A stretch of DNA of 64,000 nt. Source: an uncultured Candidatus Saccharibacteria bacterium (lineage in GTDB: Bacteria > Patescibacteriota > Minisyncoccia > Portnoybacterales > UBA2143). This document shows, in pieces, positions 7,239 through 61,956 of the stretch (its first letter is position 1; each line of letters starts with the position of its first letter). Position numbers and translations under genes: made by a program. The stretch lies in contig CAZQLH010000002.1 in NCBI GenBank assembly GCA_964594155.1, forward strand, positions 44,324 through 108,323, in the 5' to 3' direction. Below the pieces are notes generated by a model that saw nothing but the letters and a program-made list of their open reading frames with translations, was not told the origin of the DNA and searched no databases.

Positions 7239-7240
7239 AT

Positions 7241-7314: not shown

Positions 7315-7315
7315 C

Positions 7316-9346: not shown

Positions 9347-9349
9347 AAT

Positions 9350-9454: not shown

Positions 9455-9532
9455 GGCTTAGGGTTGACAAAAGTAAACTATTAAGTTAATCTGTAATTAG
9501 ATTTTATCACTTTAAAAATTAAATAGAAGGAG

Positions 9533-9814: not shown

Positions 9815-9827
9815 AAGGAGGAAAACA

Positions 9828-10073: not shown

Positions 10074-10154
10074 TGACCGGGTGGGCATGTGCTTCTCGAG
10101 AGCCCGCTCATTAAACAAGGGAAAAAGATACAGAAAGCCGTATCTAACCCTGAA

Positions 10155-11754: not shown

Positions 11755-11756
11755 AT

Positions 11757-14473: not shown

Positions 14474-14518
14474 TTAATAAAGAAAAAGTAGCACAAATGT
14501 GCTACTTTGTCAATTTAG

Positions 14519-14590
14519 CAGCCCCAAGGGGAATCGAACCCCTGTTACCAGGATGAAAACCTGGCGTCCTAACCACTAGACGATGGGGCC
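14519..14590 (-). tRNA. tRNA-Glu (anticodon TTC)
   Basis: Reverse complement folds with acceptor GGCCCCA/TGGGGCT, anticodon stem CCAGG/CCTGG, loop TTTTCAT and GTTCGATTC. Confidence 0.75.
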
Positions 14591-14634
14591 GTCTATTGTC
14601 ACATCATACAACTTAAGCTATTATTTGTAAAGAT

Positions 14635-15654: not shown

Positions 15655-15686
15655 TTAAAACAATAATTTAAGATATATTAAATACA

Positions 15687-17840: not shown

Positions 17841-17861
17841 GGTCCGACCTTGAACAACCAT

Positions 17862-18623: not shown

Positions 18624-19164
18624 AAAATCATCATTTTTTGAAAAACTAACTGGCGCTAATTGGTCAGATGAAGATACAAAAAAAAGAAATCTTGTTTCTT
18701 CTGAAAAAAAAGTAAAACCTAAAAAAACTAAAACCAAAGGAAAGTTAAAGGCTATGAAAAAAAGCTACATCAAAGGAAAAAAATCTCCTCGGGCTAAAAA
18801 AGAGAAAGAAACTGAAGAATGGCTAGGCGAATCAGAAGGCCAATTAACCATTGACGTCTATCAAACTCCTAATGAAATAGTCATCAAATCCACTATTGCT
18901 GGAGTAAAACCAGAAGATATTGATATTACCATGACTAATGATATGATCACTATTAAAGGAACCAGGGAAAAAGACGAAGATGTTAAAGAAGAGGACTATT
19001 ATTACCAGGAATGTTACTGGGGACCTTTTTCTCGCTCAATTATCCTGCCAGTTGATGTTGAGGTTGACAATTCTGACGCAGCTATGAAAAACGGTATTCT
19101 AACAATTAAACTGCCTAAGATTGAAAAGATAAAGACTAAAAAAATAAGAATTAAAAGTGAATAA
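18616..19164 (+). CDS. Hsp20/alpha-crystallin family small heat-shock protein with a Lys-rich N-terminal extension
   Basis: ACD-like block TIDVYQTPNEIVIK...GILTIKLPK. Confidence 0.7.
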   Translation: MTKKSSFFEKLTGANWSDEDTKKRNLVSSEKKVKPKKTKTKGKLKAMKKSYIKGKKSPRAKKEKETEEWLGESEGQLTIDVYQTPNEIVIKSTIAGVKPEDIDITMTNDMITIKGTREKDEDVKEEDYYYQECYWGPFSRSIILPVDVEVDNSDAAMKNGILTIKLPKIEKIKTKKIRIKSE

Positions 19165-19181
19165 ATAAAATTAATAGAAAT

Positions 19182-19213
19182 AAAAAGAGGCGCATAGACT
19201 GCGCCTCTTTTTC
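19182..19213 (+). terminator. Rho-independent terminator
   Basis: gaggcgcatagactgcgcctc followed by tttttcgtttt. Confidence 0.7.
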
Positions 19214-19236
19214 GTTTTGTGGTATAATTATAAATA

Positions 19237-20949
19237 ATGAAAAAGATTATAATAACTATTCTTTTAATAATTCTTGTTTGTCTTATTTATCTAACCATAA
19301 CCCTTCAAATAGTTAATAGCCAAAAGATTGTCTGGGGCGTTAAAATAGCTGATTTTAGATTAAATGAACGCGGTTTTCCTTCTGCTCAAAGCGCGATTGA
19401 AGACAAATGGAATGATTTTGCCAGTCAAGAAATAACTTTTGTTTATCAAAATAAAACTTGGTCTGTTAAATTAGCTGATTTAGGATTTCAAATTGATTCC
19501 CAGTCAACTTTAAGACAAGCATACCAGATTGGCCGCCAATCAAATATCTTAATTAATTTAAGCAGCCAGATAGCTGCTTTAGCTGGGAAATATAATCTTG
19601 AGCCAGTTTATGAAATAAATAAGTCAGAATTTCAGGATAAAACCACTGAACTTTTTAAAAACATTGAAAAACCAGCCCAAAACGCTTCTTTGGTTTTTAA
19701 CAAAGAAATTAATGATTTTTCTCTCAAGCATTCATCAAAAGGAAACATTATTAACAGAAGCCAACTATTAGCTGACTTATCAAAAAACATTAAATCTTTT
19801 TCTAATGAATCAGTTAACTTGCAATTAATTCTTGATCGGCCTTTAGTAGAAAACAATGAAGTGGATTCTGCTCAAGAAAAAGCTCAACAGATTTTAGCTA
19901 ATCAGCCCTATCAACTAACTTTTGAATCTGCCCGGGCTGACTATCTTAATAAAAAAAGATACTGGACTATTAATAAAGAAACAATAATTGACTGGCTTAA
20001 ATTTGAACCAGTCAAAGAAAAAAATTCAGATAATAAAATTCTTGGTGTTTCTTTAGACAATGATAAGGTTGAAGAATATCTGAATAAAATTGCTTTATTT
20101 ATTGACCAGCCGCCAATTAACGCTCAATTAAAAACAGAAGGCAATAAAGCGATTGTTTTTATTCCGTCTGAAAATGGCTTTGAGGTTAAAAAAAAACAAA
20201 CCATTGAAAAAATATCTGAAAATATTTTAGCTGATTTGCCAATTAAAAAAACAGTTATTATTGCTGATAAGGCCCTTGCTAAAATATCTTTAAGCCAGAC
20301 CAATAAATTAGGCATTAACACTGTTATTGGCCAAGGAATTTCTAATTTTGCCGGTTCGCCTAAAAACAGAATTCATAACATTAAAACAGGAGCTGCTAAA
20401 TTAAATGGCTTGATTTTAAATCCAGGAGAAGAATTCTCTTTTAATGCTCTTTTAGGAGAAAGCGGGCCAGAACAAGGGTTCTTGCCAGAATTGGTTATTA
20501 AAAAGAATAAAACTATTCCTGAATACGGCGGCGGGCTTTGTCAGGTCTCAACCACTATTTTTAGATCAGCAGTTAATTCTGGATTGGAAATAACTCAACG
20601 AACATCTCATTCTTTTCCAGTAGAGTATTATAACCCTCAGGGATTTGACGCTACGGTTTATGATCCTTATCCTGACCTTCGCTTTATTAACAATACTCCT
20701 AATCACCTTTTGATTGAATCATTTACCCAGGGAACATATCTGACTTTTAATTTTTATGGCGCTAATGATGGTCGGGAAATTAAAATCAAAGGCCCTTATG
20801 TTTTAGAAAAAAATGAAGACGGTTCTATGAAAACCGTTCTAACCCAAGAAATCTATCAAGACGGCGAATTAATAAATAAGCAAGTATTTTCTTCTAATTA
20901 TAAGTCCCCTGACCTCTATCCAATAGAAAATGGAGAAAATGAAGAATAA
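19237..20949 (+). CDS. VanW-domain protein (YoaR-like)
   Basis: N-terminal TM, then a C-terminal GGGLCQVSTTIFRSAVNSGL...PVEYY VanW-type domain. Confidence 0.65.
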   Translation: MKKIIITILLIILVCLIYLTITLQIVNSQKIVWGVKIADFRLNERGFPSAQSAIEDKWNDFASQEITFVYQNKTWSVKLADLGFQIDSQSTLRQAYQIGRQSNILINLSSQIAALAGKYNLEPVYEINKSEFQDKTTELFKNIEKPAQNASLVFNKEINDFSLKHSSKGNIINRSQLLADLSKNIKSFSNESVNLQLILDRPLVENNEVDSAQEKAQQILANQPYQLTFESARADYLNKKRYWTINKETIIDWLKFEPVKEKNSDNKILGVSLDNDKVEEYLNKIALFIDQPPINAQLKTEGNKAIVFIPSENGFEVKKKQTIEKISENILADLPIKKTVIIADKALAKISLSQTNKLGINTVIGQGISNFAGSPKNRIHNIKTGAAKLNGLILNPGEEFSFNALLGESGPEQGFLPELVIKKNKTIPEYGGGLCQVSTTIFRSAVNSGLEITQRTSHSFPVEYYNPQGFDATVYDPYPDLRFINNTPNHLLIESFTQGTYLTFNFYGANDGREIKIKGPYVLEKNEDGSMKTVLTQEIYQDGELINKQVFSSNYKSPDLYPIENGENEE

Positions 20950-41466: not shown

Positions 41467-41958
41467 ATGACTAATTTTTTAATCAACAATCAAATTACAT
41501 TCCTCTTTATAGCAACCATAGTTGTTTTAATCATTTGGAATATTACTCTTTCGTATAATCTCTGGCAAATCAGAAAAAAACTTAAAACATTTTTTAATGG
41601 AAAAAAAGCTTCTGATTTAGAAGGAGTTCTTTTTGAAGAAATCAGAAGATTAAAAAAAGCAGAAGATAGTATTAAAAAATTATTAGAATTTTCAAAAGAA
41701 TTAGAAAAAACAACTAAAAAAAGCGTTCAAAAAGTCAGTGTTATTAGATTTAATCCTTTTAAAGAAACTGGCGGCGATCAAAGCTTTGTTATTGCCCTGC
41801 TTGATAGTCAAGATAATGGACTCGTTATTTCCAGCTTATACACCCGCGAAGGAACCAGAATCTACAGCAAACCAATTGAAAATGGCCAATCAAAATACCC
41901 TTTGTCTAAAGAAGAATTAGAGGCCTTAAAAAAAGCAGGGATCAAAGCTGAAAAATAA
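41467..41958 (+). CDS. Hypothetical membrane-anchored protein
   Basis: 163-aa ORF with an N-terminal TM helix. Confidence 0.45.
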   Translation: MTNFLINNQITFLFIATIVVLIIWNITLSYNLWQIRKKLKTFFNGKKASDLEGVLFEEIRRLKKAEDSIKKLLEFSKELEKTTKKSVQKVSVIRFNPFKETGGDQSFVIALLDSQDNGLVISSLYTREGTRIYSKPIENGQSKYPLSKEELEALKKAGIKAEK

Positions 41959-41983
41959 TCTTATATAATTACATATCGCATAT

Positions 41984-42010
41984 AAAAAAACCGGCTATCA
42001 TAAGCCGGTT
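41984..42010. terminator. Hairpin terminator (T-tract on the minus strand)
   Basis: aaaaaaaccggctatcataagccggtt. Confidence 0.5.
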
Positions 42011-42196
42011 AAATTATTTCACTTAACGTTTACGTGTATCTGATGTTTCTTGCCGGATTCATCAGTATTTGCGTACATTTTAGCACATTCGTCGACTGTT
42101 TGAATAAGCTTTGGTTGTACGCTATTCGGAGGCAAGAAATATGGGCGGAGCAAAAGGACATTCCATTAATTTACATTTGAGTCCTTTTTGTGTAGC

Positions 42197-42239
42197 CAGA
42201 TATGCGTTGTTATACTTGCTGTTTTTTGGAGGCAAATTC
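42197..42239. repeat. Intergenic element IG1: cagatatgcg...ttttttggaggcaaattc. The 18-mer at 42222-42239 is the exact reverse complement of 43163-43180.
   Basis: Direct sequence comparison. Confidence 0.7.
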
Positions 42240-42291
42240 CCACCCAAACGTCATAAAAATTTTCTGATTTTACACATAGACCTCTTAGCAA

Positions 42292-43116
42292 TTATTTTTT
42301 AGCTGATATCAAGTAATGTTTTCTAGGGTAATAATCATCGTTTCCGATTGCTCTGCTATTATACTCCTTTTCTAGTTTTTCGATCTCTTGTATTAGTCCA
42401 TTCTGTAAATCCGAATTGTTTAAATTTTTGATTCTTCCTTTCGCCCATTCTAAACGTTGCCTAAATTCAATATCTATTTCCTCTTTACTTTCAAAAAATT
42501 GAGTATCATTAATTTGTAGCCCTGAATTTTTTATCAATGGAATGATCCAATCTGACGGATACTCAAAAGTTCTGATAGTTGGAAGAAAGAGAGTCAACGA
42601 TTTCGCGATCATCATATACAAATTTACTATCTCCGTCAGATCTCTAGGATTTCTTTTAGAAAGTTCAGGATCACCCTCAATTTTATCCATAGAAATATAA
42701 TCGAATTTAGGCTCATATCCCCAATAAGCTTCTCTGTCTATAAATATGACTTCACCACCTTTTTTCAAAAATTTAAACAATGCCTTGAAAGTATCGGAAA
42801 GCCTTGAAGGAGTAATCTCTCCAATAAGATAATCAGCTAAAATTAAGTCAAAAGTTGAATCACTAAAGGTAGAACTTTTTGAAATATCACCATATTTTAA
42901 AGTGTAGTTTTCATAACTCTTGTTGATTAGCTCTTGATTTGCTTGTTCACCCTTCCTTAGATCTCCTTCATATGCGAGCAATGTCAAATGCTCTGGATTC
43001 CTTTGAGCGAGAAACCATGCACTAGTTCTACCTGTTCCAGCGTCTAAAACAGATTTACCATCAAGAGATTTTCCTTTAAAATAGTTTTCTATATATTGAA
43101 ACTTTTGACTGATCAT
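42292..43116 (-). CDS. Class I SAM-dependent methyltransferase
   Basis: VLDAGTGRTSAW motif I; 274 aa. Confidence 0.65.
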   Translation of the reverse strand: MISQKFQYIENYFKGKSLDGKSVLDAGTGRTSAWFLAQRNPEHLTLLAYEGDLRKGEQANQELINKSYENYTLKYGDISKSSTFSDSTFDLILADYLIGEITPSRLSDTFKALFKFLKKGGEVIFIDREAYWGYEPKFDYISMDKIEGDPELSKRNPRDLTEIVNLYMMIAKSLTLFLPTIRTFEYPSDWIIPLIKNSGLQINDTQFFESKEEIDIEFRQRLEWAKGRIKNLNNSDLQNGLIQEIEKLEKEYNSRAIGNDDYYPRKHYLISAKK

Positions 43117-43162
43117 AATTTTAAAAATAGTTGCTAAGAAAACTTTTCCACCATACCTTCAT

Positions 43163-43269
43163 GAATTTGCCTCCAAAAAATGGCGTATAACGTTTCTGGA
43201 TATGCGATGTTGCGATAGCAATATGGGTGAAGCGAAGCGGAACCGCATATCCAGTGTTATGTGATGTAG
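43163..43269. repeat. Intergenic element IG2: 18-mer gaatttgcctccaaaaaa, a hairpin with arms ggatatgcg/cgcatatcc (loop containing gcgatagc and gcggaac), then gtgttatgtgatgtag
   Basis: Seen in the sequence. It is homologous to the elements at 45729-45830 and 44813-44866. Confidence 0.7.
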
Positions 43270-43320
43270 TGAAAAACATTCCTTAGTTATTTATAATTTT
43301 TAGTAATTTACATCCTTGTT

Positions 43321-44748
43321 TTAATAGCTTTTAGCAAAATACCAGTCATGTTTTGCCTCTTTTCCTGTTATAAAACATTTACTATTTTTAGGATTACTGT
43401 CTTCAAAATGTTTTGGTAAAACTCTTGATACCATAGAAAATTTTTCTTTCAATAATTTTTCTGATTCTACACTTTCACACCAGCTTGCTTCAAAAAAGCC
43501 AACTTGATCTTTAATATCATGTATACTTTCAATCCTGTGTATATGATACGTTGCAAATTCCTGAGCTTGCTGAAATAAGTTATTTTGAATGCTTTCAAAT
43601 AGTTGGGGTATAATAGAATCTAATTTTGCTAAATGTATTTTTTCTTTTGAATTTGTATCTCTTCTAAAAATTGTTAATTCGGATGAGTCTAGTTCTTTTT
43701 CACCAATTTCAATCCTAATAGGGACACCTTTTACTTCCCAATAATTAAACTTAAAACCAGGAGTCAATTTTTCTCTAATATCAATTTTTGTTCTATAGTC
43801 AGAAAGTTTTGATTCTATTTCTTTTGCAAATCCGATTATTTTATTTTTATTATTCTCTTTGAAAATTGGAGTAATTACAATTTGGATAGGGGCAATGTTC
43901 GGTGGCAAACGAAGTCCTGAATTATCACCATGAGTCATAATAACCGCACCTATTGACCTCCAGCTGAATCCCCAGGAGTTTTGATGGCAAAAATGTTGCT
44001 TTCCATCTTCACCAAGATATTTAACATCAAAAACTTTAGAAAAATTTGTTCCCAAGTAATGACTTGTGGCACCTTGAATTGCCTTACCATCTTTAACCAT
44101 AATTTCTGTTGTTTTTGTTGTGACCGCACCTGCAAATTTTTCCGCTTCAGACTTTTTTCCTGCAATTACAGGTATTGCCATGAATTCATAAATATCTTTG
44201 TAGATATTTAACATTTGATCCACTTCGTTCCTGGCATCTTCTTCGTTTGCAAAAACAGTATGTCCCTCTTGCCATAAAAACTCACTCCACCTTAAAAATG
44301 GTCTTGGACGTTTTTCCCATCTGACAACATTGTTCCATTGATTTAAACGAAGTGGTAAATCTTGATAGCTTTGTATCCATTTAGAATATGTTTTATACAT
44401 TGCTGTTTCGCTGGTTGGTCTAATAACTAGCTTATTCACTAATTCTTCACCACCTCCATGAGTTACAACTGCTAATTCAGGAGAAAATCCCTCAATATGC
44501 TCTTTCTCTGCTTCCAAATTTTCAATAGGTACAAAAATTGGAAAATAAACATTTTCTACTCCAGTAGCTTCAATTCTTTTGGATAACTCACTTTTAATTA
44601 GTTCCCAAATTTTGTATCCGTATGGTTTAACTATTCCGCAACCTCTAACTTCGGAAGTTTCTGCAAGGTCAGCTTCACGAACTACATCATGATACCATTG
44701 AGAAAAATTTTCTTCTTGCTTGGTGATTTGTTTTTTATCGAATTTCAT
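43321..44748 (-). CDS. proS: Proline--tRNA ligase, archaeal/eukaryotic type
   Basis: FSQWYHDVV...GCGIVKPYGYKIWE N-terminus and class II motifs, with a C-terminal zinc-binding domain; 475 aa. Confidence 0.85.
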   Translation of the reverse strand: MKFDKKQITKQEENFSQWYHDVVREADLAETSEVRGCGIVKPYGYKIWELIKSELSKRIEATGVENVYFPIFVPIENLEAEKEHIEGFSPELAVVTHGGGEELVNKLVIRPTSETAMYKTYSKWIQSYQDLPLRLNQWNNVVRWEKRPRPFLRWSEFLWQEGHTVFANEEDARNEVDQMLNIYKDIYEFMAIPVIAGKKSEAEKFAGAVTTKTTEIMVKDGKAIQGATSHYLGTNFSKVFDVKYLGEDGKQHFCHQNSWGFSWRSIGAVIMTHGDNSGLRLPPNIAPIQIVITPIFKENNKNKIIGFAKEIESKLSDYRTKIDIREKLTPGFKFNYWEVKGVPIRIEIGEKELDSSELTIFRRDTNSKEKIHLAKLDSIIPQLFESIQNNLFQQAQEFATYHIHRIESIHDIKDQVGFFEASWCESVESEKLLKEKFSMVSRVLPKHFEDSNPKNSKCFITGKEAKHDWYFAKSY

Positions 44749-44812
44749 AATTAAAGAGTAAATTACTGAAAATTATTTTAAAAAGAGTTTTTCACTATTT
44801 CACATAATGTTT

Positions 44813-44866
44813 GCGGCTATGCGTCTGTACTTGTATGACGTATAGCCGCTGTTAGCTGATGTAATT
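44813..44866. repeat. Intergenic element IG3: 13-bp hairpin gcggctatgcgtc/gacgtatagccgc followed by tgttagctgatgtaatt
   Basis: Seen in the sequence; related to IG2 and IG4. Confidence 0.6.
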
Positions 44867-44870
44867 AAAT

Positions 44871-45695
44871 TCAATTCAAACTTGTAACGTAATTTCTAAA
44901 AATTCCCATTATTTTTTTAGTATTTGGTCCGACACTACCATTTCCTACACGTTTACCATCAATGTTGACTACGGGGATTATTTCTTTGTTGGTTGCAGTA
45001 ATAAAAGCCTCAGAAATTCCTTTTAGCTCCTCAACGCTCAAATCTCTTTCCTCGATGTCAAAATGTTTTTTTGAAAGTTTAATAACTAAGTTTCTTGTCG
45101 TACCGAATAAGATATTCTGTTGGGGCGTGATTAGCTTATTGTTTTTGATAACGAAAAAATTGCTTGTTGTTGCTTCTAGAACACATCCCTCATAAGTATA
45201 CAATATTTCGAAAGCGTTTTTTTGTTTTTGTAAACCTTTTAGAGTTAACGCGGTTAAATAATTTGTTGTTTTAGCTCGCGGAAAATCCCTTTTATAATTA
45301 TGTGTAATAATTTTTATCCCCCTAGAGTAAACATGACCGGGTAGTTTCTCAAGCTTGCTGACTAATATATAAAAAGTAGGAGAGAATTTACCGGTATGTT
45401 TTTCTTCAGACCCACCAGTTAATACAATTCTTATATTTGATTCTTTATACTTATTTTTAGAAAGCAATTTTTTTATTATTTTTTTAATTTCAATATCTGT
45501 TGCCGGAATTTTTAGATTAATTGCCTTGGCGGAATTCTTAAGTCTTACCAAGTGTTCATCAAATAAAAAAACTTTTCCATTGTAGGTTCTCAAAGAATCA
45601 AAAACCCCATAGCTTCTTAATAATCCGAGGTCTGCCAAATTAATCGCAGCTTTATTTTCTGGCAGAAATTTTCCATTTAAATAACAAATTTTCAT
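44871..45695 (-). CDS. Class IV (fold-type IV PLP) aminotransferase, branched-chain/D-amino-acid aminotransferase family
   Basis: MKICYLNGKF start and EATTSNFFVIKNNKLITP...LFGTTR motifs. Confidence 0.7.
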   Translation of the reverse strand: MKICYLNGKFLPENKAAINLADLGLLRSYGVFDSLRTYNGKVFLFDEHLVRLKNSAKAINLKIPATDIEIKKIIKKLLSKNKYKESNIRIVLTGGSEEKHTGKFSPTFYILVSKLEKLPGHVYSRGIKIITHNYKRDFPRAKTTNYLTALTLKGLQKQKNAFEILYTYEGCVLEATTSNFFVIKNNKLITPQQNILFGTTRNLVIKLSKKHFDIEERDLSVEELKGISEAFITATNKEIIPVVNIDGKRVGNGSVGPNTKKIMGIFRNYVTSLN

Positions 45696-45728
45696 TGAAT
45701 TGAATTTAATTATTTCAGCTAACGTTCC

Positions 45729-45830
45729 GGCATATCTGAAGTTTTTTGTGGAGCGATAGCGGAACAAAAAATTTGGGAGAGCATTTTTCGGAGAAAAGTG
45801 CGAACCAGATATGCCGTGTTATGTGATGTA
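45729..45830. repeat. Intergenic element IG4: hairpin arms ggcatatctg/cagatatgcc (loop containing gcgatagc and ggaac), then gtgttatgtgatgta
   Basis: Seen in the sequence; homologous to IG2. Confidence 0.7.
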
Positions 45831-45899
45831 CCTGTTTTCCTTCAATCCGTCTTAGCGGATTGCTCTTAAAAAGAAAGAAATGGATTTGATTTTTTCCCG

Positions 45900-45948
45900 T
45901 TTGGGCGAGGGGCAAGAGGGGCTGGGGGTGAATTGCCCCTCGCCCAAA
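45900..45948. repeat. Perfect 16-bp GC-rich hairpin tttgggcgaggggcaa / ttgcccctcgcccaaa immediately 3' of the 635-aa ORF
   Basis: Seen in the sequence. Confidence 0.65.
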
Positions 45949-45955
45949 CACCTTA

Positions 45956-47863
45956 TTATTCTTTTGTTCGGTAATGCTCCTCAATAATTTTGTGTCCGGT
46001 TGCAACGAGTTCATGATATCCATGATTTGCTCTTGGGTCTTCGCTCATATTGTGAACATGGCGATCATCAAAGCCAAGTAAATCACCTTCTTTTTCTGAT
46101 GTGTCGGCTTGCCCGATGTTATGTCTAGTTTGAAATTCGTGAATAGCGGTTGTTGGAGTGCCGTCATAGAAAACAAGATGTTTTGGTTTTTCGTCTGGGT
46201 GTTGTTCAAAATATGTTTCCCAATATTCTTTGGCTGTTATAGTGTTTTCTGCCCTTTTCCAGTTTGCACTGGCAGATAGTAATATGGATCGCGCAGCATC
46301 TTCTTCTGTTTGATCTCCATAACTCCATTTGTTGCCCTTGTACAAATACATGCCTATTTTGTCGTTTGATAAAGTCTCATTTACTACATCTTCTGCCGTT
46401 TCTTCATCGAAGCCGAGTGCAATCATTTCTTCTCTCATAACACTAATAAAATCTCTTAGCATATTCTGTCGTTTTGAATAATCTCTTTCGTCTGAATATG
46501 CTTTGTACGCTTTTATAGACGGTGATTCTTCCGTTAAGCTCGTTGCCCACACAACAAAGGCAGAAACAAGTTTTTCGTCTTCCACCATGACTCTTTTTGC
46601 CTCACCATCGATTGTTTTAATTTCGGAAGCATATTTTGAGCCGGTTTGCGGGTCAACGGGTGTGTTCTCGGGAAGAAAAACTACACCTGCGTCAACTGGA
46701 ATCCCTGGATTGTCTAGTGTTGCAGGCCATACAAAAACATCGTTCCATTTTGTTTCACTTTGCGGTTTTGTGAAGTCCTTTTCCCAGCCATTGAAAGCAT
46801 AGTCATGTTGTGATGCCAGAACGTCAGAGGGGTACAAAAAGAAAACCTCGTTACTTTTTTCACCACCATAATATCCGTCAGCCACTATTTGAGCGGCAAA
46901 ATGGACAGCGGTTTTGTCGGGATAATTTGGAGCAGTTGCAAGTGAATGATTGAGTTGAGCGTTGAGCCGTTTCTTAGCTTCCTCCTCGTCTTCTGCTTGT
47001 AGCGCCCAATCTTCAACAAATTTTTGTATGGATGCTTCATCTCTTGCGAGCAAACCATCTCGGACTGCCATTGGTGGACGAAGCAGTTTTTGATCTCGCA
47101 ATACGCTCGTTAATCCATCGTGAAATTCCTGCAAACCAGCAGAGTGATAGACCATAGCGTTATGATCTCGAAATCCTTGTCGGGTAACATGCGAAAGAAA
47201 ATGCGGATTCAGCCTGCGCCATAGAGCAATGTATTCTTCCGTGCTAAGTTCGGCAAGCACTTCTGGACGAAGTAGTTCTCGTTTTTCTGAGTTCGACAAT
47301 GGCATTGTTTCCATTTTGGCGTAGTACGCTTCAAGCATTTTTTCTGGGTTGGGCAACTCTGCTTGTTTTTGAGCAAGTTTTTCTAATTCATCACGAAGTG
47401 CAAAAGCTTGTGAAGTAAGTTCTTCCATTTCAGCGTCCATTGTTGCGATTTCTGTTTGCATCTCTGCCGCTGATTTGTCCTTGATGCGGAAAAGTTTTTT
47501 GAGTCGTGTGGCAATTGTTTCAAGTCGTTGTTCCAATGCCAAAACTTTTTCAGCTTTGAGTGCGTCCAGTTCTCTAGCTTTTTGTTCTTTTTGTCCGAAC
47601 GATTCTGATTTTCCAGCAATACCTTCACCAACTGTGGCTGCACGTGTTCTCACCTCTGAAATTTCAGCTTCAACAGTTTGACGACCTTCGATGTCGTATT
47701 TTTGAGATATAGCGTGAGGGTCAAGCAAAGTACGTTTAATTTGCTCAATAGTTTGAGCAACAACTTCGGTTGTTTCTTGTGCAGTCTCAGCTTCTGGCGT
47801 GGGTTCGCCAGTAGGTTTTTCGGCGTGAGCTTGTTGTGTGTGTCTTTGTTCTTGGTTATCCAT
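45956..47863 (-). CDS. Hypothetical protein (635 aa) with a coiled-coil N-terminal half, strongly GC-rich and compositionally foreign
   Basis: About 45-50% GC by eye against about 33% for neighbours. The protein is rich in E/A/Q/T/R and poor in K/N/I, unlike the rest of the window. No motif recognised. Confidence 0.55.
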   Translation of the reverse strand: MDNQEQRHTQQAHAEKPTGEPTPEAETAQETTEVVAQTIEQIKRTLLDPHAISQKYDIEGRQTVEAEISEVRTRAATVGEGIAGKSESFGQKEQKARELDALKAEKVLALEQRLETIATRLKKLFRIKDKSAAEMQTEIATMDAEMEELTSQAFALRDELEKLAQKQAELPNPEKMLEAYYAKMETMPLSNSEKRELLRPEVLAELSTEEYIALWRRLNPHFLSHVTRQGFRDHNAMVYHSAGLQEFHDGLTSVLRDQKLLRPPMAVRDGLLARDEASIQKFVEDWALQAEDEEEAKKRLNAQLNHSLATAPNYPDKTAVHFAAQIVADGYYGGEKSNEVFFLYPSDVLASQHDYAFNGWEKDFTKPQSETKWNDVFVWPATLDNPGIPVDAGVVFLPENTPVDPQTGSKYASEIKTIDGEAKRVMVEDEKLVSAFVVWATSLTEESPSIKAYKAYSDERDYSKRQNMLRDFISVMREEMIALGFDEETAEDVVNETLSNDKIGMYLYKGNKWSYGDQTEEDAARSILLSASANWKRAENTITAKEYWETYFEQHPDEKPKHLVFYDGTPTTAIHEFQTRHNIGQADTSEKEGDLLGFDDRHVHNMSEDPRANHGYHELVATGHKIIEEHYRTKE

Positions 47864-48169
47864 AATTTTGAAGTTTAATCTGTTAATTATAGCTTAGATT
47901 AAGGCTAATATCAATCAAAAAACGTTTTCGTAGCGACCAGCGGGAGCGGAGAAAACACCTTATTCCCCCCTCTATAAAAAATAAAAAATCAAATCCATTT
48001 TCTTTTAAAAGCTTGGGCAATAGCCCAAAAAGGAAAACATGTATTTCACATAACTCGTTTATATACAATCTTTTTATATATAATTATTATTATTTGTATA
48101 TTATATACAATTTATGATATAATCTACAAATAATAACTTCATTAATATTTTAACAAAATACATTTATTT

Positions 48170-48985
48170 ATGCAAGAATATTTAATCCAAACAAAAAACG
48201 AACTAAAATTAAGAAACTACAGCATAAGAACAATAAAAAGTTATCTTTTGTGCTTAAAAGAATATTTTTCTTTTATTGAAAAAGATTTTGAAAAATTAAA
48301 TGTTGATCAAATAAGAAAATTTCTCTTAAAAAAACAAGAAAAAGGATATGCTCCTCAAACAATTAATCTTTATCTTAACTCAATAAAATTCTTTTATCGT
48401 GAAATTATTAAATCTTCTAATAATATAGATCTTAAATTCGCTAAAACAAATAAAAGATTGCCTGTTATTTTATCTCGGAAAGAAATTAAAAAAATTACAG
48501 AAAAAATAAAAAATAAAAAACATAAATTGATTATCTCTTTAACTTATGGGGCTGGTTTAAGAATCAGCGAAATAATTAATCTTAAAGTAAAAGATATTAA
48601 TTTAGAAGAATTAACTATTCATATTAAACAAGCTAAAGGCAAACAAGATAGAATCACTATATTCCCTGAAATACTAAAAAAAGATATTGGCATCTTAATT
48701 GCTTTAAAAGATATGAATAACTATATTTTTGAGAGTAATCGGGGCGGCAAACTATCTATGGGTTCTCTTCAGCAAATATTTAAAAAGGCGTTAAAATTAT
48801 CAAAAATTAAAAAACAGGCTACTTTTCATTCTCTACGACATAGTTTTGCCACTCACCTATTAGAAAATGGAACTGATGTTCGCTATGTCCAAGAATTATT
48901 AGGCCATCAAAATATTAGAACAACTCAAATATATACTAAAGTTACCAATCCTAGTCTTAAAAACATTAAAAGCCCTTTTAATTAA
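48170..48985 (+). CDS. Tyrosine site-specific recombinase (XerC/XerD/phage-integrase family)
   Basis: C-terminal HSLRHSFATHLLENGTDVRYVQELLGHQNIRTTQIYTKV carries the R...HxxR...Y catalytic residues; 271 aa. Confidence 0.8.
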   Translation: MQEYLIQTKNELKLRNYSIRTIKSYLLCLKEYFSFIEKDFEKLNVDQIRKFLLKKQEKGYAPQTINLYLNSIKFFYREIIKSSNNIDLKFAKTNKRLPVILSRKEIKKITEKIKNKKHKLIISLTYGAGLRISEIINLKVKDINLEELTIHIKQAKGKQDRITIFPEILKKDIGILIALKDMNNYIFESNRGGKLSMGSLQQIFKKALKLSKIKKQATFHSLRHSFATHLLENGTDVRYVQELLGHQNIRTTQIYTKVTNPSLKNIKSPFN

Positions 48986-51109: not shown

Positions 51110-51865
51110 ATGGAAGGTTTATTTACTAAAGCTATCAATTCCCACTTCTTTAAAGAATGGAATTCAGAAATGAGTTATGTTTTAGGATACATAACAGCCG
51201 ATGGATGTATATCTATGGATAAAAAAAGAAAAAATCCATTTTCTCTTAATATAACTTCTGCTGAAAAAAAACATTTATATAAAATAAGAAAAGCACTTGG
51301 ATCAACTCATAAAATAGGTAAAAAAATAGGAGGATACTCTGGTGGGATTTCTTACCAAATTCAACTTCGTAATCCAGTTATTTGTAATAATCTTATAAAT
51401 TTAGGTATCTTACCTAGAAAGACATACAATTTAAATCCAATAAAAGTCCCTAATAAATATTTTTCTGATTTTGTTCGGGGATTTTTTGATGGCGATGGGA
51501 CAGTTTATATTTACACAGTTAATAGTACACCACAAATAAAAACTGAATTTGTAAGCACAAGTTTGCCTTTTATAACTGAATTTAATAAAGATCTCTGTAA
51601 AGGACTTAACATTCCTCAAAAAGCTATTCACAAACAAATTCCTAAAATAAAAAATAAAGTTGTTATGTATTCTATTTGTCTATATGTTGATGATTGTGAA
51701 AGATTAAATAAATTTATGTATCAAAATAATCCATCCTTATATCTCCCACGAAAGTATAAAGTTTTTGAAAAATGGAAAACTATTAAAAGAAGAAAATACA
51801 CGAAACAAAATTACCCATCAAAAGTTGGCTGGCAATTAAATCAAAATTACTTAAGAACAAACTAA
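51110..51865 (+). CDS. LAGLIDADG-family homing endonuclease, free-standing
   Basis: Two dodecapeptide motifs, LGYITADGCI and VRGFFDGDGTVYIY. The ATG lies 7 nt after the tRNA CCA. Confidence 0.75.
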   Translation: MEGLFTKAINSHFFKEWNSEMSYVLGYITADGCISMDKKRKNPFSLNITSAEKKHLYKIRKALGSTHKIGKKIGGYSGGISYQIQLRNPVICNNLINLGILPRKTYNLNPIKVPNKYFSDFVRGFFDGDGTVYIYTVNSTPQIKTEFVSTSLPFITEFNKDLCKGLNIPQKAIHKQIPKIKNKVVMYSICLYVDDCERLNKFMYQNNPSLYLPRKYKVFEKWKTIKRRKYTKQNYPSKVGWQLNQNYLRTN

Positions 51866-52379: not shown

Positions 52380-52488
52380 AATATTGTTAAAGCAAATTAA
52401 AAAAGCCCTTCAGGACTTTCCCATATACTATCATATCTAATCCAATTTGTCAAGGATTTTTAGGGTATTTTATTGAATAAAAATCGTG

Positions 52489-52560
52489 AGCGGGTGAGCG
52501 GAATCGAACCGCCGTCGCGTGATTGGCAACCACGTGTAATAACCACTATACGACACCCGC
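52489..52560 (-). tRNA. tRNA-Gly (anticodon GCC)
   Basis: Reverse complement has acceptor GCGGGTG/CACCCGC and anticodon stem CGTGG/TCACG with loop TTGCCAA. Confidence 0.7.
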
Positions 52561-52611
52561 ATATTCAATTGTTCTTATTATACTACACTATCTCAATTTT
52601 TCAAGAAATTG

Positions 52612-52683
52612 TGCCGAGGGGCGGATTTGAACCGCCGACACCACGAGTTTCAGTCGTGTGCTCTACCCCTGAGCTACCTCGGC
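52612..52683 (-). tRNA. tRNA-Phe (anticodon GAA)
   Basis: Reverse complement has acceptor GCCGAGG/CCTCGGC, D stem GCTC/GAGC, loop CTGAAAC and GTTCAAAT. Confidence 0.8.
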
Positions 52684-52700
52684 ATATATTTAATTTTCTG

Positions 52701-52775
52701 TGGACCGTGTGGGACTCGAACCCACGACCCCTTCGATGCCATCGAAGTACTCTAAACCAACTGAGCTAACGGCCC
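52701..52775 (-). tRNA. tRNA-Ala (anticodon GGC)
   Basis: Reverse complement has acceptor GGGCCGT/ACGGTCC with G3-U70, loop ATGGCAT and GTTCGAGT. Confidence 0.7.
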
Positions 52776-52783
52776 CTTGCCAG

Positions 52784-52855
52784 TACCCCTACTAGGAGTC
52801 GAACCTAGATCAATGGCTTAGGAAGCCACGGCTCTATCCATTGAGCTATAGGGGC
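52784..52855 (-). tRNA. tRNA-Arg (anticodon CCT)
   Basis: Reverse complement has acceptor GCCCCTA/TAGGGGT, anticodon stem GTGGC/GCCAT with loop TTCCTAA and GTTCGACT. Confidence 0.7.
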
Positions 52856-58647: not shown

Positions 58648-61600
58648 CTAAATATTACAAGTTGGACAACTGCCTTTTGGTAAATCAGGTAATTCAGGCG
58701 AAGGATCTCTTAATTCTGGAGAAATTTCTATTTCTTTGATTGGATTTTTTTTATTATTCTTTTTTTTCTTTTTATTACTAGATGGATTTATTTTTTTCTT
58801 ATCATTTCCAATATTCAAAACTTGCTGTTTGCGACTTTCATTGCGATAAAGAGTCATTCCTTTACAGCCAAGTTTATAAGCTAAAAGATAAGCTTTTCTA
58901 ACATCTTGTTCAGAAGCTGAAAATGGAAAGTTAATTGTTTTACTAGTTGCATTATCAACATATTTTTGAAAAACCGCCTGCATCTTAATATGGTCTAATG
59001 GAGCAATATCCAAGGCAGTAACAAAAACTTTTTTTACATCTGTTGGAATTTCTTTAATATCTTGAACATTTCCTTTAGCTGATATTTTCTCAGCAAGTTC
59101 TTTAGACCAAAATCCTCGTTCTTTGGCTATCTCTTTAAAAAGAGGGTTTGTTTCAACCATTTCTTGTCCTCCTAAAATATGCTTTCTAACAAAAGAAATG
59201 GCAAAAAGCGGTTCAATAGCTGAAGAACAGCCAGCAATAATGCTAATTGTTCCAGTTGGCGCAATAGTTGTAGTTGTAGCGTTTCTTATTTTAGGCATCC
59301 CGCTTTTATTATAAACACTATCTTTAAAATTAGAAAAAACCTCTCTTTCTTCTGTTAAAACAACTGAAGCTTTTTTTGATTCTTCTTGAATGAATTTCAT
59401 CACTTTTTCAGCTAAATTTAATGCTTTTCTTGAATTATATGGAATGCTTAATCTAATAAACATATCAGCCAAGCCCATTACTCCCAAGCCAATCTTTCTA
59501 TTGCTTTTGGTCATTTGCTCAATTTCTGGTAAAGGATATTTATTAACATCAATAACATTATCTAAAAATCTAACAGCATTATGAGTGGTTTTTTTTAACT
59601 TATCCCAATCAACTTCCCATTTCTCGCCTTTTTTTTCAACCATTTTACTTAAATTAATACTTCCTAAATTACAGCTTTCATATCCAAGCAACGGCTGCTC
59701 ACCGCAATTATGCAACAGAAATCCATTTCCGTCAAATGCATTAATGCCGGGTATTTGAATATCATAAACATCTTTTTTGCCTATAAAAACAATATCTTTA
59801 ACCGTAACGATAAATCTCTCTCTAACCATTTTTCTATTAAATCCATTAATCAATGATCTTAATTTATCTTGCTTGTCTTTATTGCTAAAACCAACCATTT
59901 TATAAAAAGTTGCAATATTTTCTCTTGAAATAATAAGTTCATGTTGAGCTTTTGTGTTATATAATCTATAACCGCCCTTGCCGTCAGGCATTTCTTTTTT
60001 CATGCTTTTTCTGCGGTTTAAATGCAATTGTGAAAATATCCCCAACCTTAACAACATCCTTTGAACAGCTTTTAATCTCTGGATATTGCTTTGAGATAAT
60101 CTAATGCTAATCCCATTTGTATAAGTTCCTTGAACAGAACCATCAGCGTCAAAAAAACCTCTTAAAAATCCTCTGTAAAAGCTTGATGAAGTTTTTTCAA
60201 TTTCAGGGGTAATTTTTTTCTTATTATCCATACCTAATTCTTTTGTTAAATTTTTAAAATAACCCATAGCTAATCTATATTCATTACGATTAGATATTTT
60301 TTGCCATCCCTTAAAATCAGACCTATGAGGAAATGATTTAGTGTATTTCTCTACCACTTTTCTAATGCTTTTATCGCCGTTACTTTCTCCCCAGCTACTT
60401 AAAACAACTTTATCTTTTTTAATTGTGCCATCTCCTACTAATAGGCCCATTAAATATCCTTCTTTGTTATTATGTTTACCAGGCCATTGATAGTTTTTAT
60501 TAACATTAATTACAATTTTATCGCCTGATTTTAATTTACCAGCTTCTTCCCAATCAGAATTAATTTTATATCTGCTTATTTCTTTAACTTTTTTAATCAG
60601 ATGATTTGCAGTTAAAGAAATTTCATATCCTTCTTTAGTTATTAATTTAAATAATTTTTTAACACCAGTATTAAAGAATCCGTTTCCAGAATTAGACCAT
60701 TCTTTTCCTTCTACAATAACTTTAGTTTTTTTGCCGATCAATTCTTTAACCTGTCTAGGTCCATCATTAGTCATTATCCAAGAATCATCTGAAATACATG
60801 GATTGGTTGATTCTATCTCGCCTAATTTTGGCGTAGGATTGTCTTTATTGATCCTGTCAATGAAAATAATTCCTGGTTCGCCATTGCGCCAAGCATGATG
60901 AACAATTAAATCAAAAACCTCATTAGCGTCTAACTGACCGCTTACTTGGCCATCCCTAGGATTAATTAAATCATATTTCTGCTTCTTTCTAACTGCCTGC
61001 ATAAATTTATCAGTTATAGCAACTGATATATTAAAATTATTTAAAACCCCTTCTTCTAATTTAGAAGTGATGAATTCTAAAATATCAGGATGATCTACTC
61101 GCATAATGCCCATATTCGCGCCTCGTCTTTTTCCGCCTTGCTTAATTACCTCTGTAGCCGCGTTAAAAACAGTCATAAAGGAAAGCGGACCAGAAGATTC
61201 GCCTTGAGTTGATTTAACTAAATCTTTTTTTGGCCTTAAACGAGAAAAACTAAAACCAGTGCCGCCGCCGCTTTTATGGATTAAGGCCGCGTCTTTTACC
61301 GCTTGAAAAATATCCTCCATTGAATCTCCAATTGGAACTACAAAACAAGCGGATAATTGCTGTAAAGCGCCGCCAGCATTCATTAAAGTAGGTGAGTTTG
61401 GAAGGAATTCCAAAGAGGCCATCATTTGATAAAATTCTCTTCCAATACTAAAAAGATCGTCATCAGAAATTGACGGCTTAAAAAATGATTCAGCTGAAGC
61501 AATATTAGCAGCTACTCGTTGAAATAATTGTTGAGGTGTTTCAATAATCTTCCCTTGCTCGTCCTTTCTTAAATACCTTGACTCAAGAACCCTTAAGGCA

Positions 61601-61956
61601 TTTGGTGTAAGCTTGGTTTTAACATCTTGACTTAAAAGCCACCATTTGGCTTCGCGAATCTCTCTTCTTTTTTGACGATAAAGATTGTAAGCTTCAGCAA
61701 TTTCTTTATGTCCTTCTTTAGCTAAGGTCTCAACAACTATATTTTGAATTTGTTCCACTCTAGGAATTTTATCCTTAAACCTTTTATTTAAAACATCAAT
61801 TACTTTATTTGAAATTTTCTGAGCTAAACCTCTGTCTTCTTGTTCTTTAGCTTGAAAAGACTTAAAAATTGCTTCAGTTATCTTGGACTGATAAAAATCA
61901 ACAACCCGGCCGTCTCTTTTTTTAATTTGATTAAAGTTCATTTCTGCTTGAGGCAT
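58648..61956 (-). CDS. nrdJ: Class II (adenosylcobalamin-dependent) ribonucleotide reductase NrdJ with an N-terminal ATP-cone, interrupted by an intein
   Basis: ATP-cone [20 protein letters not shown]; an active-site TNPC...GEQPLL split by the intein; a C-terminal CPTCNI redox pair. Confidence 0.8.
59707..60798 (-). mobile_element. Intein (about 364 aa) with a LAGLIDADG homing-endonuclease domain inside nrdJ
   Basis: Starts with Cys after STNP, has block B TANH, LAGLIDADG motifs [11 protein letters not shown] and [11 protein letters not shown], ends ...LLHN followed by Cys, and the extein resumes CGEQPLL. Confidence 0.75.

Follow-up and report, generated by a model that had tools for sequence, protein, structure and literature searches.

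Is the row of four co-oriented genes beside a tyrosine recombinase at this Patescibacteria locus an array of mobile gene cassettes, and if so, what type of enzyme and site is involved? The window (the whole stretch of 64,000 nucleotides that was analysed) contains, as the original prediction had it, minus-strand genes at 47863–45956, 45695–44871, 44748–43321, and 43116–42292 and a plus-strand recombinase gene at 48170–48985. The hairpin elements of the locus had been attributed either to a non-canonical integron-like cassette capture system or to a family of promoter/5′-UTR hairpins. The first alternative is borne out by the presence or absence of a single cassette, variable arrays at a fixed locus, and cassette-specific covariation, and the locus is very probably a sedentary chromosomal integron-like cassette platform with an Xer-type integrase. 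The cassette array and attI-like site span 42012–48069; these and the adjoining features are as follows:

48170–48985, plus strand: tyrosine recombinase, 271 aa, XerA/IntI-like, presumed cassette integrase (Pfam Phage_integrase and SAM-like N-terminal domain)
48092–48113, minus strand: direct copy of the attI left arm, AAATTGTATATAATATACAAAT, conserved as GTTCGTATAATAYACAAAT in loci L001, L004, L010, L015, and L016
48043–48069, minus strand: attI-like, dif-like core site, ATTGTATATAAACGAG|TTATGTGAAAT, with the same architecture in other Patescibacteria loci
45723–48053, minus strand: cassette 1, 2331 bp, 635-aa protein of unknown function (gene 47863–45956)
45708–45833, minus strand: attC-like element 1 (covariance-model match 106 bits, E 1.4e-21)
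44808–45722, minus strand: cassette 2, 915 bp, class IV aminotransferase (gene 45695–44871; Pfam Aminotran_4, E 7e-49)
44793–44866, minus strand: attC-like element 2, short 15-nt loop (49.6 bits, E 4.6e-8)
43191–44807, minus strand: cassette 3, 1617 bp, archaeal/eukaryote-type prolyl-tRNA synthetase (ProRS; gene 44748–43321; TIGR00408 proS_fam_I, 550 bits)
43176–43271, minus strand: attC-like element 3 (88.7 bits, E 1.9e-17)
42027–43190, minus strand: cassette 4, 1164 bp, SAM-dependent methyltransferase (gene 43116–42292; Pfam Methyltransf_31/25/23)
42012–42224, minus strand: attC-like element 4, ~150-nt loop (49.4 bits, E 5.1e-8)
41989–42010, no strand: bidirectional terminator-like hairpin at the distal array end, adjoining a conserved DUF4446 gene

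The recombinase, described beforehand as short and Xer-like, indeed has 271 residues without the IntI insertion and is the sole tyrosine recombinase within the window. It scores 222.6 bits against the NCBIfam XerA model NF040815 (cutoff 220); the second-best NCBIfam match is the integron integrase model TIGR02249, with 211 bits (<265) in two stretches, and a second IntI threshold is also missed (123 < 435). The best PDB match is VchIntIA (2a3v), of which residues 4–200 and 246–317 align with query residues 3–194 and 199–270. Some 45 IntI residues (~45) are thus missing, and the IntI-specific additional domain is absent. According to Messier & Roy (2001, as cited in PMC9668308), integrons require this domain for recombination. 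Bit scores of 151 for VchIntIA, 149 and 139 for archaeal XerA, and 77 for XerD place the enzyme as close to VchIntIA as to archaeal XerA and far from XerD. The catalytic residues R131, K156, H220, R223, H246, and Y255 fall in invariant columns among 30 homologues. The recombinase probably belongs to the “Cand” subgroup of simple tyrosine recombinases, Xer-related proteins of candidate phyla that were grouped with presumed housekeeping Xer, with no cassette array or site described (Smyshlyaev et al. 2021, PMC8138268). Searches of the literature found neither a description of this cassette platform nor a report of integrons in Patescibacteria.

The attI-like half-site at 48043–48069, absent from the original prediction, adjoins the recombinase, and no second site of this kind occurs in the window. 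It consists of a TTCGYATAA-like left arm, a spacer of ~7 nt, and a TTAnnnGAAAT right arm, and the first cassette boundary lies between 48054 and 48053. Nearly all of the Patescibacteria loci examined have a site built in the same way, 75–150 nt upstream of the start codon (ATG) of the recombinase. The copy of the left arm at 48092–48113 may bind the recombinase as an accessory site, act as the −10 box of an outward promoter, or do both.

The attC-like elements have the form R″(..TAAC)–stem–variable loop–stem′–(G/A)AAC|GTTA.... In element 1, R″ TACATCACATAAC (45818–45830), L″ (45806–45816), a structured loop, L′ (45728–45738), and GAAC run into R′ of the next cassette, GTTAGCTGAAATA (45711–45723), and the single strand folds with −17.7 kcal/mol (z −3.7). 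Element 2 comprises R″ (44851–44863), L″ (44839–44849), L′ (44813–44823), and AAAC, followed by ATTATGTGAAATA (44796–44808); element 3 comprises R″ (43256–43268), L″ (43244–43254), L′ (43196–43206), and AAAC, followed by GTTATACGCC (43182–43191). Element 4, the sequence of which was left out of the seed alignment of the covariance model, has R″ GCAAGTATAAC (42209–42219), L″ (42197–42205), and L′ (42036–42042) and ends in an orphan terminal R′, GTTAAGTGAAATAATTTAA (42009–42027). The segment 42197–42239, previously taken as an element of its own, is the 5′ end of this larger element. The paired arms GGATATGCG/CGCATATCC and GGCATATCTG/CAGATATGCC, the GCGATAGC motif, and the identical GTGTTATGTGATGTA tails were correctly read. 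Exact matches to GTTAnnTGATGTA and GTTAnnTGAAATA are confined to 42.0–48.06 kb, and the covariance model matched only these four element positions in 64 kb, a clustering at the array far beyond chance.

Of the 11 pairs in the L″/L′ stem, 10 show compensatory double changes, and pairing holds in 91.9% of cells; its covariation score is 0.391 versus 0.138 for shuffled alignments (0/500) and at most 0.08 for slid ones. The bases beside the crossover behave differently from this stem. The variable triplet that follows GTTA was compared in 25 cassettes (14 loci): it perfectly complements the far end of its own cassette in 23, but the neighbouring half of its own element in only 2. When 16 nt are compared, the matches are 12.0 and 8.2, respectively (Wilcoxon p=1e-5). 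Pairing of these bases with their own cassette rather than with the neighbouring half is the signature of a G|TT crossover, as in integrons.

The same relationship is visible around each of the four genes as long inverted repeats (I1, I2, I8, I11, I12, I14, and I24), the most telling feature overlooked in the original prediction. A 29-nt, 93% inverted repeat (I1) encloses the cassette 2 ORF, the cassette 4 gene lies between perfect 18/18 and 17-nt inverted repeats (I11 and I24), and the flanks of cassette 1 are long and complementary, with a score of 52. Scores of 5′/3′ flank complementarity are 41–52 for the four genes and ≤31 for all other 53 genes of the window; in 3000 null trials the mean was 20.8 (sd 3.3) and the highest score 36. 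Sites reconstituted as in circular cassettes fold with z-scores of −8.6 to −10.9 (cassette 2, −22 kcal/mol, z −10.4; cassette 3, −36.2 kcal/mol, z −8.6).

Comparison of strains and relatives reveals precise natural gain and loss of cassettes at the element sites in two lineages. The 1617-bp ProRS cassette is precisely absent from otherwise near-identical strains (L006/L009 versus L007/L008/window), and element sites bound the gap, the junction falling within a TTAT that is common to both forms and immediately follows AAAC(G/A). The recombinases of these strains are identical and the flanks >99.9% identical, with 4 SNPs in 5 kb; assembly collapse is unlikely because only 4 nt are common at the junction. 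In this respect the locus acts as an integron does, despite an integrase without the IntI-defining domain. ProRS is normally essential and this exact protein was found in this array only, so loss of the cassette would require a second ProRS gene, a point against this reading. In a second lineage (recombinase 69% identical), L010 and L011 are identical over 5127 nt and diverge exactly after GGAACGTTA, and three samples of this strain carry three different arrays. Relatives with 87–88% identical recombinases keep xer-infB-rbfA and the distal DUF4446 gene, whereas the cassettes, with cargo including TspO, APH, HD, and hydrolase genes and others, are entirely different but have the same junctions; the array of relative L001 is bounded by the same terminator-like hairpin and DUF4446 gene. 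Synteny is kept downstream of the recombinase and not upstream, unlike the general conservation of gene order that would have accompanied a canonical XerC/D. Across Patescibacteria loci, covariance model R1 gave 42 matches, every one of them upstream of the recombinase and antisense to it, with at least one match in 17/17 loci having at least 1 kb of upstream sequence. A single metagenome scan for a circular cassette junction returned no match.

In the proposed mechanism, circular gene cassettes would be inserted by site-specific recombination at G|TTA into the dif-like attI site beside the divergent XerA/IntI-type recombinase and later excised. Each cassette would bring one attC-like imperfect palindrome, in which the outer R″/R′ (..AYWTCnnnTAAC / GTTAnnnGAAAT) and inner L″/L′ arms would be four copies of one recombinase-binding motif, the inner arms forming the ~11-bp covarying stem around ATAT. 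As a single strand, the site would fold to a hairpin mimicking a two-armed core site, with an asymmetric central spacer (1–2 nt versus 4–5 nt) and a variable, branched apex. A crossover between the L′-spacer and R′ means that the R′ half moves with the next cassette, and hence each integrated gene is bracketed by its own complementary R′/R″ arms. The recombinase at 48170–48985 would be the catalyst of these events, and we infer both the choice of strand and the use of the site as folded ssDNA, with one strand exchange resolved by replication, like integrons and CTXphi.

The recombinase, being above the XerA equivalog threshold, may primarily be a housekeeping Xer. In that case, which we regard as unlikely, the enzyme would resolve chromosome dimers with the upstream site as its dif, and the cassettes would be IMEX/dif-module elements that exploit it through ordinary recombination of directly repeated, double-stranded dif-like sites; the hairpins would be incidental or of other use. 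The protein is very strongly conserved, with thousands of ~270-aa homologues at 63–74% identity, and resembles the recombinases of Xer/dif systems and IMEX (CTXphi attP, XerS/difSL, XerH/difH, and archaeal XerA/dif) in being small and without an arm-binding domain. The ~28-nt target likewise has two inverted 11-nt arms resembling dif (..CGCATAA / TTATnnnAAAT). Double-stranded Xer-type recombination is possible because the L′-spacer-R′ junction, the 3′ half of every site, repeats this dif-like architecture by itself. There are also precedents: dif adjoins the xer gene in XerS/difSL, and CTXphi, which integrates through Xer, has a folded ssDNA attP mimicking the site. However, the site lies away from the replication terminus: cumulative GC skew is monotonic over the window and the L015 locus is ~6 kb from dnaA. 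Compensatory L″/L′ covariation and cassette-specific R′/R″ pairing would be unexpected if only the double-stranded 3′ half mattered, and a covarying hairpin site on every cassette sets the system apart from Xer/dif and IMEX, as does an ordered gene-cassette array rather than a phage or island. Every examined locus of the family with enough sequence carries such an array, which has the look of a dedicated platform rather than occasional parasitism. Acinetobacter pdif modules similarly place one or a few genes between Xer-type sites forming inverted repeats and are mobile between contexts, but pdif sites alternate (C/D, D/C), are plain 28-bp double-stranded sites, and reside on plasmids, whereas the sites here are same-oriented hairpin-forming composites, arrayed on the chromosome next to a dedicated recombinase. 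Both explanations invoke an Xer-type enzyme and so overlap; they differ in mechanism and primary role.

It is very improbable that the locus is an overlooked ordinary member of the IntI/attC family, even though the likeness to integrons (class 1 and the Vibrio superintegron) extends from the integrase divergent from a co-oriented array to ORF-less cassettes, strain-variable content, and accessory cargo (restriction-modification systems, kinases, and methyltransferases). The sites are closer to attC than first claimed, with R″/L″/L′/R′ boxes, AAC...GTT triplets, an unpaired central spacer, a variable branched apex, and a G|TT crossover that makes the first cassette bases pair with their own R″. 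Extrahelical bases are, however, absent from the L stem; asymmetry comes instead from a spacer that is 3 nt longer on the L′-R′ arm, opposite to canonical attC (PMC2727003). The main further differences are the ~270-aa XerA-type integrase below the IntI cutoffs, a dif-like, two-arm attI with an upstream copy of its left arm, R′/R″ complementarity of 18–80 nt rather than ~7, up to six genes in some cassettes and a housekeeping-type aaRS in one, and the Patescibacteria host clade.

That the elements act at the RNA level only, as leader/trailer hairpins, 5′/3′-UTR panhandles, or RNase III processing stems that would regulate or stabilise each mRNA and be unrelated to recombination, is scarcely tenable. 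They are intergenic, fold stably, and make the UTRs of each gene complementary, and the best sigma70-like match (47914→47886) falls within the 5′ UTR of the cassette 1 gene. However, DNA indels end exactly at the elements, relatives carry unrelated cargo, the elements are strictly linked to the recombinase gene in fixed orientation, no Rfam family matched, and no T-runs follow the stems, which tells against the promoter/5′-UTR hairpin family as a primary role. An RNA role could coexist with recombination; as the sole explanation it is already contradicted. Inverton- or shufflon-like switching, in which the adjacent recombinase would flip each gene on or off through its 18–29-nt flanking inverted repeats, has practically no chance of being correct, since no cassette in opposite orientation was seen in 24+24 contigs of the strain and all relatives, the polymorphisms are presence/absence, and spacer asymmetry makes the two ends non-equivalent.

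In the integron-like cassette platform, genes would be expressed from promoters carried by the cassettes, from an outward promoter close to attI, or from both. The GC content of cassette 1 (42% versus ~33% for the genome) is foreign, and its 635-aa protein matched no Pfam, NCBIfam, or PADLOC family. Flank complementarity of up to ~80 nt is far beyond integron need and may reflect an additional RNA-level role.

The gene layout of the original prediction, four minus-strand genes and one plus-strand recombinase, was confirmed, and the stems, loop motifs and identical tails quoted there were found in the window sequence. The window has a GC content of about 33%, is identical to metagenomic Patescibacteria contigs and contains many tRNA genes; the 17 in 64 kb (window 1-64000), including a cluster of four at 52488-52855, represent a high density that is typical of a very small genome. 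Defence-system annotation gave no match for the 635-aa protein of the first cassette.

Genes of the array, with the inverted repeats that flank them
Cassette 1, minus strand: 635-aa protein of no recognisable family; flanking inverted repeats of 28 and 18 nt
Cassette 2, minus strand: class IV aminotransferase; flanking inverted repeat of 29 nt (93%)
Cassette 3, window 43321-44748, minus strand: archaeal-type ProRS; flanking inverted repeats of 21 and 19 nt
Cassette 4, minus strand: SAM methyltransferase; flanking inverted repeats of 18/18 and 17 nt
Window 48170-48985, plus strand: 271-aa tyrosine recombinase, followed by infB and then rbfA

The inverted repeats, which bracket each of the four cassette genes and were recovered by a repeat search, had escaped the original prediction. 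When the 5' flank of each gene was locally aligned with its reverse-complemented 3' flank, the four cassette genes scored 41–52 and the other 53 genes of the window at most 31; among 3000 mismatched gene pairs, scores averaged 20.8 (sd 3.3) and peaked at 36. In the coding sense (minus strand), the intergenic element reads ..TACATCA-yyy-TAAC, 1–2 nt, a stem of ~11 bp, a loop, the returning stem, (G/A)AAC and GTTA-zzz-GAAATA.., and its four boxes are termed R'', L'', L' and R'. The variable yyy pairs with GTTA-yyy at the opposite end of its own gene, not with the zzz of the same element. Because crossover at the G|TT of R' turns the last attC bases of a circular cassette into the first bases of the integrated cassette, this same-gene pairing is a prediction of integron biology. 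The central spacer is unpaired, forming an internal loop of 1–2 nt versus 4–5 nt, and the apex is variable: its loops, 15–160 nt long, enclose the conserved motif YCCCAWATT together with one or two hairpins. A single arm motif is directly repeated in R'' and L'. Each attC-like site also repeats the attI-like layout in its L'-spacer-R' half, where the spacer is ~9 nt. All of the junction elements, composite hairpins of 70–215 nt, lie in one orientation. The complementarity between R' and R'' is very long. Folded as single-stranded DNA, the reconstituted circular-cassette site of ProRS adopts a long hairpin (−36.2 kcal/mol, z −8.6), and the two strands of the aminotransferase site reach −22.0 and −24.6 kcal/mol (z −10.4 and −10.9). 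The elements fold less strongly in their array context (z −3.7 to −4.5).

At least 28 elements were collected from at least 16 Patescibacteria loci, including Saccharibacteria, Peregrinibacteria, Gracilibacteria and Paceibacterota. An alignment of 18 elements, A2, has the consensus ..AYWTCnnnTAAC-AC-nGnATATnCG-GTTCG-(hairpin)-CTYCCCAWATT-(hairpin)-AAACWTC-GnATATnCn-GAAAC-GTTAnnnGAAATA. Compensatory double changes occur in 10 of the 11 pairs of its inner L''/L' stem, in which 91.9% of cells are paired; the covariation score is 0.391, as compared with 0.138 for shuffled alignments (0/500) and ≤0.08 for slid controls. TAAC and GTTA are paired in 16–18 of the 18 elements, and the variable triplet is mostly unpaired inside its own element: perfect complementarity is seen between the two ends of one cassette in 23 of 25 cases and within one element in 2 of 25.

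Crude regular-expression counts of the motifs gave a 3–7-fold enrichment over a noisy background, and a covariance model, R1, was used instead. On 1.12 Mb of DNA, R1 produced 62 matches at E ≤ 0.01. The element family was also sought in related loci; all 42 matches in Patescibacteria loci are antisense to the recombinase and upstream of it, and none of the 17 such loci whose upstream sequence reaches 1 kb is without a match. Within the window, R1 finds the four elements only, including the long-looped fourth, which was absent from the seed. A genome-wide REP/MITE-like repeat was ruled out both in the window, where neither the motifs nor R1 match anything in the 64 kb beyond the array, and in relatives, where R1 matches are confined to the region upstream of the recombinase. 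At many loci (L016–L018, L023, L025–L032, L034–L038, L041 and L048), the contig stops ~100–600 nt upstream of the recombinase. Such ends, at the array or just inside it, are seen in most species-representative Patescibacteria assemblies; they would be expected if variable arrays break the assembly, and they fit strain heterogeneity or repeats as the cause. The Gracilibacteria locus L033 contains an ORF-less “empty” cassette of ~150–250 nt twice (9646-9999 and 7983-8222; GTTAGCACGAAATCGC ... CGAGTTTCGTGCTAAC), which suggests cassette duplication or re-insertion.

Natural variation places the cassette boundaries at these elements. Contigs from several samples were found by look-up of the exact recombinase protein. 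Among near-identical strains, L007 and L008 carry the array of the window and L006 and L009 are without ProRS. What separates the two pairs is a clean segment of 1,617 bp (window 43191-44807) whose ends have only ATAA (sense TTAT) in common, directly after AAAC(G/A), which is the predicted junction. With a repeat of only 4 nt at the segment ends, assembly collapse is unlikely. Elsewhere in the flanks, strains with and without ProRS are separated by 4 SNPs over 5 kb and 4 over ~10 kb. The predicted junction of the circular ProRS cassette is L'3-GAAACG|TTATGTGAAATAGTG; in a scan for circular, tandem or relocated ProRS junctions, the 23-nt 5' end of the cassette had 0 matches in a collection of metagenome contigs that probably lacks the relevant samples. 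All 24 contigs in which the exact ProRS protein was found carry it as cassette 3 of the same array, so strains without this cassette need another proS; their ProRS activity may come from a second gene or through host dependence. One contig from one sample, L101, has its recombinase gene called as two ORFs (585-1377; 107 aa and 152 aa), a frameshifted or interrupted copy beside an otherwise intact four-cassette array.

In a second lineage, with a recombinase that is 69% identical, the contigs L010 and L011 share an identical stretch of 5,127 nt that takes in the recombinase, the first cassette and the site of that cassette, and their identity ends exactly after GGAACGTTA. Three samples of this strain yield three different arrays, which contain restriction-modification and other defence-type genes. 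Synteny of the four cassette genes, which the original prediction, together with a canonical XerC/D and a nearby dif site, had named as evidence against cassette capture, is not conserved across relatives. In relatives with 87–88% identical recombinases, infB-rbfA is kept on one side; L001 also retains the far side of the array, with the DUF4446 gene and its terminator hairpin. The cassettes between these flanks are wholly different, with no proS, and the junction architecture is unchanged. The cargo of L001 consists of a six-gene TspO/DUF1295 cassette, an APH kinase and small ORFs, and that of another locus, L004, of an HD protein and a hydrolase.

The attI-like site is located 75–150 nt upstream of the recombinase ATG, is conserved across lineages and reads TTCGYATAA / ~7 nt / TTAnnnGAAAT, with a second left-arm copy ~40 nt further upstream. 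The E. coli dif site is GGTGCGCATAA-TGTATA-TTATGTTAAAT; judged against it, the attI-like site is a two-arm core of the dif type. Upstream of attI is a conserved repeat containing TATAAT; it was not called by a consensus promoter scan, which performed at chance level and placed its best promoter-like site inside cassette 1. The cassette genes, all on the strand opposite the recombinase and reading away from it, would be expressed from cassette-borne promoters and/or an outward promoter near attI. The GC skew is monotonic through the window, with no inflection, and L015, a locus with a recombinase homologue, has dnaA ~6 kb away; the array is thus away from the replication terminus.

The window contains one tyrosine recombinase and one attI-like site. 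Homologues of the recombinase number in the thousands in Patescibacteria, all of ~270 aa and 63–74% identical, with invariant catalytic residues. The recombinase passes the NCBIfam XerA equivalog NF040815 (recomb_XerA_Arch) marginally, at 222.6 against a cutoff of 220, fails the integron-integrase profiles TIGR02249 (211.3 < 265) and NF011946 (123 < 435) and is far under the cutoffs of the XerC and XerD models. Among solved structures, it is equally close to VchIntIA (151 bits) and archaeal XerA (149 and 139) and distant from XerD (77). The alignment to VchIntIA (2a3v) is split, skipping IntI residues ~201–245, where the query has only four residues. These residues are the IntI-specific additional domain around patch III, for which a check had been proposed in the original prediction and which is absent from the recombinase. 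A passage of PMC9668308, citing Messier & Roy 2001, considers this domain defining and necessary, and the “Cand” Xer-related subgroup, placed among housekeeping Xer proteins, takes in proteins of the present type (Smyshlyaev et al., PMC8138268). NCBI names the NF040815 product “site-specific tyrosine recombinase/integron integrase”, a hint that curators noticed the kinship at the protein level.

The locus, with its observed architecture, stem covariation, cassette polymorphism at G|TTA, hypervariable cargo and strict linkage to the recombinase, is best read as an integron-like platform run by a Xer-type integrase. The recombinase would catalyse the cassette events, and the attC-like site would be used as a folded single strand, with resolution by replication, as the stem covariation and fold z-scores indirectly suggest. 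Similar to integrons, the locus has imperfect palindromes in which R''..AAC and GTT..R' boxes enclose an inner L''/L' stem, crossover at G|TT with natural indel junctions in TTAT or after GTTA, an unpaired central spacer with a variable terminal structure, an attI that adjoins the integrase gene and co-oriented cassettes that point away. Differences from integrons are that the recombinase lacks the additional domain and falls under the integron-integrase cutoffs, and that the site asymmetry is of another kind. In canonical attC sites, extrahelical bases within the L stem (the R''-L'' arm) set strand choice (PMC2727003), whereas the L stem here is uninterrupted, just two of the 18 elements having an additional column, and the asymmetry consists of three surplus nucleotides in the central spacer of the L'-R' arm. 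The sites, with their conserved AAC/GTT triplets, R and L boxes and crossover at G|TT, are closer to attC than the original prediction had judged. The absence of the domain and that of the extrahelical bases go together.

The main rival is that a housekeeping Xer protein is exploited by IMEX-like elements through double-stranded recombination. The enzyme class is common to both readings, and passing a Xer equivalog profile, if marginally, is a likeness to Xer/dif systems. However, the rival explains poorly the hairpin covariation, the universal presence of arrays and the non-terminus location, the window having neither dif-at-terminus placement nor a GC-skew switch. In pdif modules, the boundaries are plain 28-bp Xer sites of alternating orientation, unlike the uniformly oriented composite hairpins seen here. 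Purely RNA-level elements, including the promoter/5'-UTR hairpin family offered as the alternative in the original prediction, are contradicted as a sole explanation by the DNA indels at the elements and by their invariant orientation. Rfam matched only tRNAs in the window at the gathering threshold and nothing under E 0.2 in E-value mode across 41900-48250, and T-box, riboswitch and ribozyme readings were dropped, as no Rfam family matches. Intrinsic terminators and promoters were likewise rejected, since consensus scans were at chance level and the stems carry no T-tracts. Inversion switches are contradicted by the invariant orientation, the DNA indels and the lack of any contig with a flipped cassette.

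Similar arrays are found beyond Patescibacteria. In Flavobacteriia, Paenibacillaceae and Spirochaetes, the sites read ..nnnTAAC-a-stem..stem'-GGAAC-GTTAnnn.. with cassette-specific R'/R'' pairing, and they adjoin recombinases that are 35–44% identical, mostly downstream and on the same strand. These recombinases have no IntI insertion, score 212–228 bits with the XerA model and under the cutoff with the IntI model, and carry an N-terminal extension of ~100 aa (one of ~310 aa). Arrays of the same site type are present in L056 (Flavobacterium difficile; 11406-20499), L062 (Saccharibacillus kuerlensis; 11295-12677), L068 (Paenibacillus), L079 (Spirochaetia; 5727-10093) and L058, L042, L045, L051, L080–L083 and L095. 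In L043 (1-915), from a Candidatus Pacearchaeota (DPANN) MAG, a XerA-like gene, an attI-like TTCGATATGATAGTG|TTATATGCAAT and one cassette are followed by an attC-like site cut by the contig end. The 3' flank of this cassette is ~63/64 identical to the 3' flank of a cassette in the Patescibacteria locus L004 (1-232), which points to a cassette module shared across domains or, alternatively, to a binning error.

We put at even odds the broader proposal that compact XerA/IntI-like recombinases without the additional domain run Patescibacteria-wide platforms, that relatives do likewise elsewhere, as appears to be the case in DPANN archaea, Flavobacteriia, Paenibacillaceae and Spirochaetes, and that they form a class intermediate between Xer/dif and integrons, with attC-like sites devoid of extrahelical bases and an attI still recognisably dif-like. 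The searched full-text literature, of incomplete coverage, describes neither integron-like arrays in Patescibacteria nor integrases without the additional domain acting on attC-like sites. IntegronFinder-based surveys define an integron by the IntI domain (PMC9024848), so such platforms would be invisible to them or appear only as orphan attC clusters. If the proposal holds, this widespread, previously unrecognised integron class would be a living intermediate between Xer/dif and classical integrons and could supply the “missing integrases” of many attC clusters without IntI, and cassettes, even one for an aminoacyl-tRNA synthetase, would move within and perhaps between domains in minimal genomes. 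Were the recombinase the catalyst, integron-type gene capture would reach the Candidate Phyla Radiation, whose tiny-genomed members account for a very large and little-understood share of bacterial diversity, and would be a main way in which they gain defence and metabolic genes. The additional domain and extrahelical bases would then not be required; they would form a coupled elaboration that the system can do without, and the dif-like attI and four-box sites would offer a concrete model for an integron origin from Xer/dif. A compact (270-aa), structure-specific recombinase with defined sites may also serve as a tool.

A higher-GC non-coding “chassis”, TAAGGTGTTT followed by a G/C-rich hairpin, is shared around unrelated cargo in different lineages (window 45834-45955 and 47864-48042; L001 3552-3937 and 7179-7355; L010 4701-5092 and 9751-9900). 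It occurs in the 5' UTR and again right after the stop codon, small symmetric hairpins break up the long R'/R'' stem, and the chassis may be a nested second-level element or a gene-recruiting scaffold. Further selfish elements of this small genome are a 1102-aa ribonucleotide reductase with intein and LAGLIDADG domains in the gene tables (window 58648-61956) and a free-standing 251-aa ORF with faint LAGLIDADG matches (window ~51110-51865), just past tRNA-Cys/tRNA-Leu.
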